Part shown: positions 41,401 to 41,552 of the stretch, piece by piece
Numbering within the stretch: the first letter of the stretch is position 1
Layout of the letters: each line of letters begins with the position of its first letter
Origin: Eledone cirrhosa
Lineage: Eukaryota
Assembly (NCBI GenBank): GCA_964016885.1
Contig: CAXHJY010000796.1
Coordinates: forward strand, 8,130 to 72,129
Direction of reading: 5' to 3'
DNA length: 64,000 nt
Made by a program: the position numbers and the translations under genes
Notes under the pieces: model-generated
The model's input: only the letters and a program-made list of their open reading frames with translations
Told to the model about the DNA's origin: nothing
The model's database searches: none

Positions 41401-41514
41401 AGGAACCAGTAAGACCCCGGGGTCTTAGCGGTTCCTATTACCCACTCTACTACCCTAAGTATTGAGTACTTTGGTGCGTTATGGTCCACCTGGTTCCTTA
41501 CCACATTTCCTTCG

Positions 41515-41552
<38 letters not shown>

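Follow-up and report, generated by a model that had tools for sequence, protein, structure and literature searches.

Can the point at which two copies of a repeat meet head to head disclose where the RNA behind them was cut? We examined this question for one insertion in a 64,000-nt stretch of Eledone cirrhosa DNA, here called the window, in which a 20-nt left arm and a 100-nt right arm stand head to head with (TA)n on both sides (41399–41518). At the centre, TAAGACCCC (41410–41418) directly abuts GGGGTCTTA (41419–41427), placing the axis at 41418|41419 (CCCC|GGGG); the arms mismatch at two adjacent bases. Three longer copies in the window (41651–41860, 10850–11049 and 9085–9286) read ...GTC|GGGG.., so the right arm of the 41399–41518 copy begins at the first base after GUC, the predicted cut of a hammerhead ribozyme. 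The initial annotation had put the axis exactly there and had taken everything upstream for mirror sequence; both observations are borne out, and the left arm mirrors 20 nt before running into (TA)n. Since C|G forms a 2-bp palindrome of its own, the junction at 41418|41419, taken alone, fits an end at +1 as well as one at −1 or +2 (numbered from the predicted cut), and it is other copies that settle the matter.

The locus is made up as follows.

41284–41398, no strand: left flank, a (TA)n-rich target array
41399–41418, minus strand: tail-less arm, running from +20 down to +1 relative to the predicted cut
41418–41419, no strand: CCCC|GGGG, where the arms meet head to head at the predicted GUC|G hammerhead cut; blunt class, CG-ambiguous
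41419–41518, plus strand: tail-bearing arm, +1 to +100, with the 3′ strand of stem I (GGGGU) and then an 80-nt 'tail'
41519–41550, no strand: right flank, a (TA)n target array
41551–41613, no strand: second, minute insertion of the same family (family A) in the same TA array, an inverted tail end plus a tail fragment
41648–41860, no strand: third family A insertion, of the common type, both arms stopping near −44 around a 5-nt centre

One TA array thus hosts three family A insertions within 460 bp (41399–41860), of which that at 41551–41613 is a tail-only palindrome. Of the ribozyme, the copy at 41648–41860 has the 3′ half, with GAAA, stem III and GUC, and lacks the 5′ half of the core. No complete family A ribozyme was detected in the window by Rfam (0 matches) or by a motif scan; the 5′ half of the core is present in longer family A copies outside it. 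Elsewhere in the window lie an older family B copy with diverged arms (62788–62994), a short tail remnant (36155–36192) and a long tandem array with strong skew and periods of 9 and 12 nt (46100–50000).

In the 3.0-Gb genome from which the window comes, the exact junction pattern was matched 96 times forward and 94 times in reverse, which corresponds to about 95 loci, against 0 for the reversed control; the junction is therefore not a product of chance. All 15 junction loci inspected share the two-arm layout in (TA)n. When contigs of four sequencing runs were compared with the locus, the family was found in all four and the mirror arm was partly covered in one, and none of the contigs held a piece spanning the junction.

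Parent element and hammerhead ribozyme

Family A represents short end products of a Penelope-like element (PLE), which its sequence motifs mark as Hydra-like. The intact parent, locus L364, has a unit of 3,118 bp that carries a ribozyme, the tail, a 719-aa ORF starting with ATG at +191, a 3′ UTR and a second ribozyme; past +100, the native continuation into the 5′ UTR and ORF is seen in loci L230 and L364. Two direct repeats lie 3,118 bp apart at L364, with an inverted truncated copy (98.8%) upstream, and inverted arms also occur at loci L301, L303 and L304. The parent ORF has the motifs YRDD and AYIG in an RT plus GIY-YIG layout, SDKTG in place of a DKG form (DKT; also in L301 and L303), a CxCX5C linker (CNCPDRSIC) and the series CxxC..E..N..CxH (CNLC..E..LLN..CKH), and its N-terminus reads RWR where the Hydra clade has RWK. 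A Pfam search of this ORF gave no match; BLASTP against a neighbouring protein with Pfam-confirmed RVT_1 and GIY-YIG gave an E value of 2e-6, and its Atlas neighbours are clusters with GIY-YIG/RVT families (0.96–0.99). A MITE or DNA transposon was ruled out, because the inner ends of the arms are variable and the parent is an RT element.

As far as the accessible text of Craig et al. (2021, PMC8557442) goes, the C-terminal-endonuclease PLEs of the Hydra clade share with this parent a single ORF in which RT is followed by a GIY-YIG-type end, the DKT, the CxCX5C linker, and the CxxC and CxH around E and N. They also share (TA)n targets, hammerhead pLTRs, inverted 5′-truncated copies and an optional tail; in family A, TA-type repeats follow 147 of 159 tail ends, and 68 of 72 partner arms are tail-less. 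Family A departs from that account in having RWR for RWK, a length of 3.1 kb, a U3–A8 core, a helix II region of 55 nt and a tail of 80 nt rather than 30–40 nt, and its affiliation is drawn from motifs alone. Non-LTR retrozymes, according to the accessible part of a recent preprint (bioRxiv 10.64898/2026.07.22.740005), are likewise short PLE-derived repeats with type I hammerheads, but they form tandem units with a whole ribozyme each, whereas family A copies are head-to-head dead ends without the catalytic core. The 41399–41518 copy and the common short copies have no 5′ core, and the only tandem seen (locus L300) has none either. That tandem consists of three head-to-tail 257-nt units, each starting at about −44 and reaching 25 nt into the ORF (L300:600–1320); it may have arisen from a small circle, or by template jumps in which synthesis passed from the RNA 5′ end onto a short RNA.

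A complete type I hammerhead motif was found in 5,800 arms with a pattern that allows either base at positions 3 and 8. Among the first 100 of these, counted by hand, the core is U3–A8 in 76, C3·A8 in 22, U3·G8 in 2 and C3–G8 in none. Hammerhead cores of the U3–A8 type can be active, and this type is present in all 15 cores of the TCTTAC subfamilies, to which the 41399–41518 copy belongs; the 4 C3·A8 cores seen with a subfamily signature all belong to TCCTAC subfamilies. For the parent L364, which belongs to the same subfamily as the 41399–41518 copy, the minimum-free-energy fold is a three-way junction open at helix I, with G10.1–C11.1 and A15.1–U16.1, although no more stable than that of shuffled sequences (z = −0.11), and other family A subfamilies prefer alternative folds. 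The distant family F keeps the core, of type U3–A8, and shows a two-sided change in stem I. Together, the motif and the predicted fold support a family A ribozyme that is real in structure, a complete type I hammerhead with a three-way fold. CUGANGA was also tried as the family core and rejected: such searches returned mostly junction filler or other families, and the core is UUGANAA. The ten C3–G8 copies that this search did find are rare variants. One successful subfamily has the mismatched C3·A8 core, which is predicted to be impaired (loci L113, L232, L233 and L085), with rare C3–G8 copies within it; no marker downstream of the cut was established that separates C3·A8 from U3–A8 inside that subfamily.

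In the accessible text of Cervera and de la Peña (2014, PMC4209133), PLE hammerheads resemble the family A ribozyme in being of type I with a short helix I and a long helix II, and in having G10.1–C11.1 and a palindromic loop 3, and the U3–A8 variant is already on record there for the Schistosoma PLE Cercyon. Unlike the ribozymes of that account, family A has a helix III of 5 bp.

Arm ends at and away from the predicted cut

An exact anchor is present in 21,983 tail-bearing arms, 384 of which have a mirror arm within 18 nt. Tallies of ends at the cut were scored by script over the first 100 of the 384 matches listed, representing 99 loci from C1 to the start of C3. Perfect palindromes are centred on the cut at 21 of these near-cut loci and at none of the nine other positions in range; comparison with neighbouring axes had been set as a check beforehand, and it came out for the cut. 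A further 53 junctions contain filler, bases that fit neither arm, and their 106 arm ends pile up at +1 (71 ends), with 9 at +2, 10 at +3, 4 at +4, 3 at +5, 7 at −1 and 2 further up. Six of the seven −1 ends are longer arms interrupted by a point change. Both arms end at +1 around 1–6 filler bases at 27 loci, which removes the CG ambiguity. Single-base fillers, found at 10 loci against 1 possible precursor, do not stem from CpG decay, as the blunt class also indicates (21 intact, 2 decayed).

Copies with a single arm end at the same base. The 100 rows listed for these correspond to 45 loci; 19 with a mirror remnant were set aside and 26 were scored by hand. Ten of the 26 begin at +1, and no start lies between −1 and −5; tested against a uniform distribution over 19 positions, p is 4e-7.

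Other families were examined in smaller numbers. The older family B has a 7–11-nt centre in 12 of 15 loci, and family F has its centre at its own cut in both loci, where a TCGA palindrome confounds the reading. In family C, which has an unrelated ribozyme, both arms lie within 1 nt of the predicted cut in only 4 of 12 loci, a small and ambiguous sample.

Subfamilies differ in how often they end near the cut. The TCCTACTC subfamily, which includes mismatched C3·A8 cores, accounts for 18 of the 99 script-scored near-cut loci, compared with 22 of the 47 loci that share these anchors but are centred further up (by hand count; p = 6e-4 against the near-cut share) and with 41 of the first 100 tail-bearing arms listed (p = 6e-4 against the same share). 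C3·A8 makes up only 3 of 7 A8-type cores that carry the 3′ signature of this depleted subfamily, so that the depletion near the cut is indirect in its bearing on the core, and it fits ends that would depend on the ribozyme.

Ends at the cut are a minor class. In a sample of 98 arms, taken from the first 100 tail-bearing rows, which span the initial 27 Mb of C1 and include a few tandem or duplicate arms, 2 clear and 2 possible ends lie at the cut, or about 2–4%. Most arms (58) stop between −35 and −46; 9 extend past −190, none ends between −47 and −193, and the remainder end between −1 and −30. The edge near −41 coincides with TTAGT/TCAGT, which we take to be an initiator-like motif, inside loop II of the ribozyme. 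Poly-A/T fillers occur at this edge, each of the three tandem units of L300 begins at it, and none of its ends showed by eye the extra G of a cap signature. From its sequence and position, the −41 edge is probably a second RNA 5′ end, a transcription start; the accessible text of Arkhipova et al. (PMC3846280) describes a pLTR with an Inr-like sequence. An RNA starting near −41 would be without the 5′ core, and its cleavage would require pairing with another ribozyme copy. The hard edge at −35 to −46 also appears in the window copies at 41651–41860, 9085–9286 and 10850–11049, and runs of at least 13 A/T between arms at the −41 edge (loci L120, L266 and L281) suggest long untemplated addition of A.

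Origin of the two arms

The two arms of a pair usually match each other. Over nine diagnostic bases they are identical in 59 of 65 pairs, and two or more differences occur in none, against 46% of random pairs, which points to the same RNA or the same source for both. Rare pairs combine arms of different subfamilies or arms just 90% alike (G000:C1:63662950–63663012 and L085), so that a site can occasionally draw on two RNAs. At their 3′ ends, arms of the fetched loci stop at +20 in 201 of 431 cases and at +100 in 191 of 431, both of them TAT triplets, and hardly any arms end at the TAT triplets of +42 and +62. The 5′ ends vary independently within a pair. The first filler base is A in 21 of 33 cases and the last is T in 20 of 38, a pattern that separate addition of an A to each cDNA would give; some fillers copy the arm itself, as in end-joining repair.

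These observations are best accommodated, with a probability of about 0.68, if the 41399–41518 copy is a 120-bp PLE insertion in which two target-primed cDNAs of a self-cleaved RNA were joined head to head. The parent, the ribozyme layout, the 3′ ends at +20 and +100, the pile-up at +1, the filler at the joint and the pairing of a tail-bearing with a tail-less arm of the same subfamily are directly seen. In the events that would connect them, the endonuclease would break the (TA)n target, and each target 3′ end would pair with a UAU in the sense RNA (+20 or +100) and prime synthesis; the tail-less arm 41399–41418 would then be a cDNA primed at the proximal start, the TAT triplet at +18 to +20. 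Both polymerases would run off the same RNA 5′ end, adding a few untemplated bases, mostly A, and host end-joining would fuse the two cDNAs. The template RNAs would be of three extents: most copies would come from RNAs starting near −41, about a tenth from uncut read-through, and some 2–4% from the 3′ cleavage product of the ribozyme, which is most likely the source of the 5′ end of the 41399–41518 template. A comparable scheme is known in vitro for the PLE PAc, where cutting and extension affect both strands of the target and the tail is set by two internal RT starts (PMC11167929).

The same joining of cDNAs would yield the same DNA if the RNA end at +1 were made by something other than the ribozyme, namely a minor transcription start, a protein nuclease, or a polymerase that halted at the stem III base or in the G-run. 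We regard this as unlikely, although more probable than the other alternatives. C|G is a pyrimidine–purine step and a possible initiator, so a minor start at +1 would look identical in DNA, just as a 5′-OH and a cap do; the stem III just upstream of the cut is GC-rich; and RNA-seq of PAc has no ends at its cut (PMC11167929). However, in families A, B and F the position agrees exactly with the NUH site, base for base, and the mismatched-core subfamily is depleted although the sequence around +1 is the same. A polymerase halted at the foot of stem III should have included the unpaired C at −1, where only 7 of 106 ends lie, mostly explained otherwise, against 71 at +1. The initial annotation had reasoned from a self-cleaved template to synthesis that turned around at the 5′ end of the RNA. 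The former is likely, as read from axis preference and ribozyme layout in the DNA; the latter, in which one cDNA would self-prime, copy back and stop at +20 through TAT microhomology, we consider quite improbable. Near-identical arms would suit it, and palindromes at inverted PLE junctions have been interpreted as self-priming in the accessible text of PMC3846280. Yet 35 of the 48 junctions with both arms at the cut have 0–2 nt between the arms, below the 3-nt minimum of a hairpin loop and hence too short for self-priming. The tail-less arm exceeds the tail-bearing arm by at least 3 nt in at least 14 of 72 pairs, which copy-back cannot yield without later deletion; single-arm copies end at the same base, and the TAT triplets at +42 and +62 hardly ever served as stops.

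Symmetric deletion of a hairpin tip after insertion, named in the initial annotation as the alternative, would act on longer palindromes by cruciform resolution or by deletion across CG microhomology. Such losses do occur in family A (about 24 of 100 rows listed, by hand count, through repeated AGCCGT/ACGGCT), and the blunt class has a 2-bp CG microhomology at its centre. This explanation nonetheless fails where the end at +1 recurs with no tip to lose: in the 10 of 26 copies that have no mirror arm and hence no hairpin to delete, and in the 27 loci with both arms at +1 around filler and without microhomology. It also sits badly with the count of 0 perfect palindromes at the nine other positions in range, and the one-base fillers are not its decayed products (10 against 1 precursor; 21 intact against 2 decayed in the blunt class). 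We therefore give it very little weight. A fold-back artefact of sequencing or assembly is hardly credible at all: perfect palindromes can arise during library preparation, but dozens of loci have point differences between arms, fixed unequal 3′ ends and separate TA flanks, and the arms of the window copy itself mismatch at two bases. Two separately primed cDNAs joined end to end thus fit better than a turn-around of synthesis.

Known systems and implications

The Poseidon element PAc of Anolis (Frangieh et al. 2024, PMC11167929) resembles family A in its AT-rich target, in the priming of both strands and in its two tail-defining internal RT starts, the distal one about 90–100 nt downstream of the ribozyme cut. 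The RT starts of PAc are not homologous to the target, whereas those of family A are TAT triplets matching (TA)n; and in PAc cleavage is dispensable in vitro, with no RNA-seq reads from the cut, whereas a minority of genomic family A copies end there (PMC11167929). For R2, whose HDV-like ribozyme leaves genomic 5′ junctions that mirror the cut of the template RNA, the accessible text of Eickbush et al. (2013, PMC3774820) is a precedent for inferring a ribozyme cut from genomic junctions. The two cases differ in ribozyme and element, and the cut RNA is the normal template in R2 but a 2–4% side product in family A (PMC3774820).

The element type, the inverted copies, the tail and the U3–A8 core are already known. 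Hammerheads are present in nearly all PLEs, and their cutting in vivo, the origin of inverted copies and the sense of the template are questions left open in print. Cervera and de la Peña (2014, PMC4209133), in the text accessible to us, state that evidence for in-vivo cleavage is absent for PLE hammerheads, and Arkhipova et al. (PMC3846280), in theirs, attribute junction palindromes to self-priming on an antisense template and leave the question open. Among the publications covered, which take in subscription papers and the 2026 retrozyme preprint incompletely, we found no report of PLE copies that stop where the hammerhead cuts. With its tail-bearing arms, at least 22,000 in number, family A offers countable evidence on all three points, and the same counting can be applied to any PLE-rich genome. 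Arm ends at the cut indicate a sense, cleaved template, and filler-joined arms that end independently indicate two cDNAs. For this minor class of copies, the ends are likely to be indirect but countable evidence that a PLE hammerhead cleaves in vivo.

A more general proposal, to which we give slightly less than an even chance, is that Penelope insertions in this genome are a fossil map of RNA 5′ ends, written by a dimeric RT that copies one sense RNA from two UAU starts at a broken TA repeat, with the promoter start near −41 and the hammerhead cut at +1 as the ends recorded. If so, this would be the first in-vivo evidence of germline cleavage by a PLE hammerhead, and the inverted repeats of PLEs would be explained without antisense self-priming. 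Ribozyme activity could then be compared across lineages, such as U3–A8 against C3·A8, by copy counts, and cleavage would restrain the element by sending its RT into 120-bp dead ends.

At least four other families in this genome have type I hammerheads (families C, D, E and F; loci L034, L066, L190 and L023). Family C also shows head-to-head pairs of tail-bearing and tail-less arms, and in family D TATATA precedes the predicted cut. Chimeras that join a family A arm to a ribozyme region from family C or D occur at loci L034, L046, L081, L040 and L045, some of them at a shared AGAAT.
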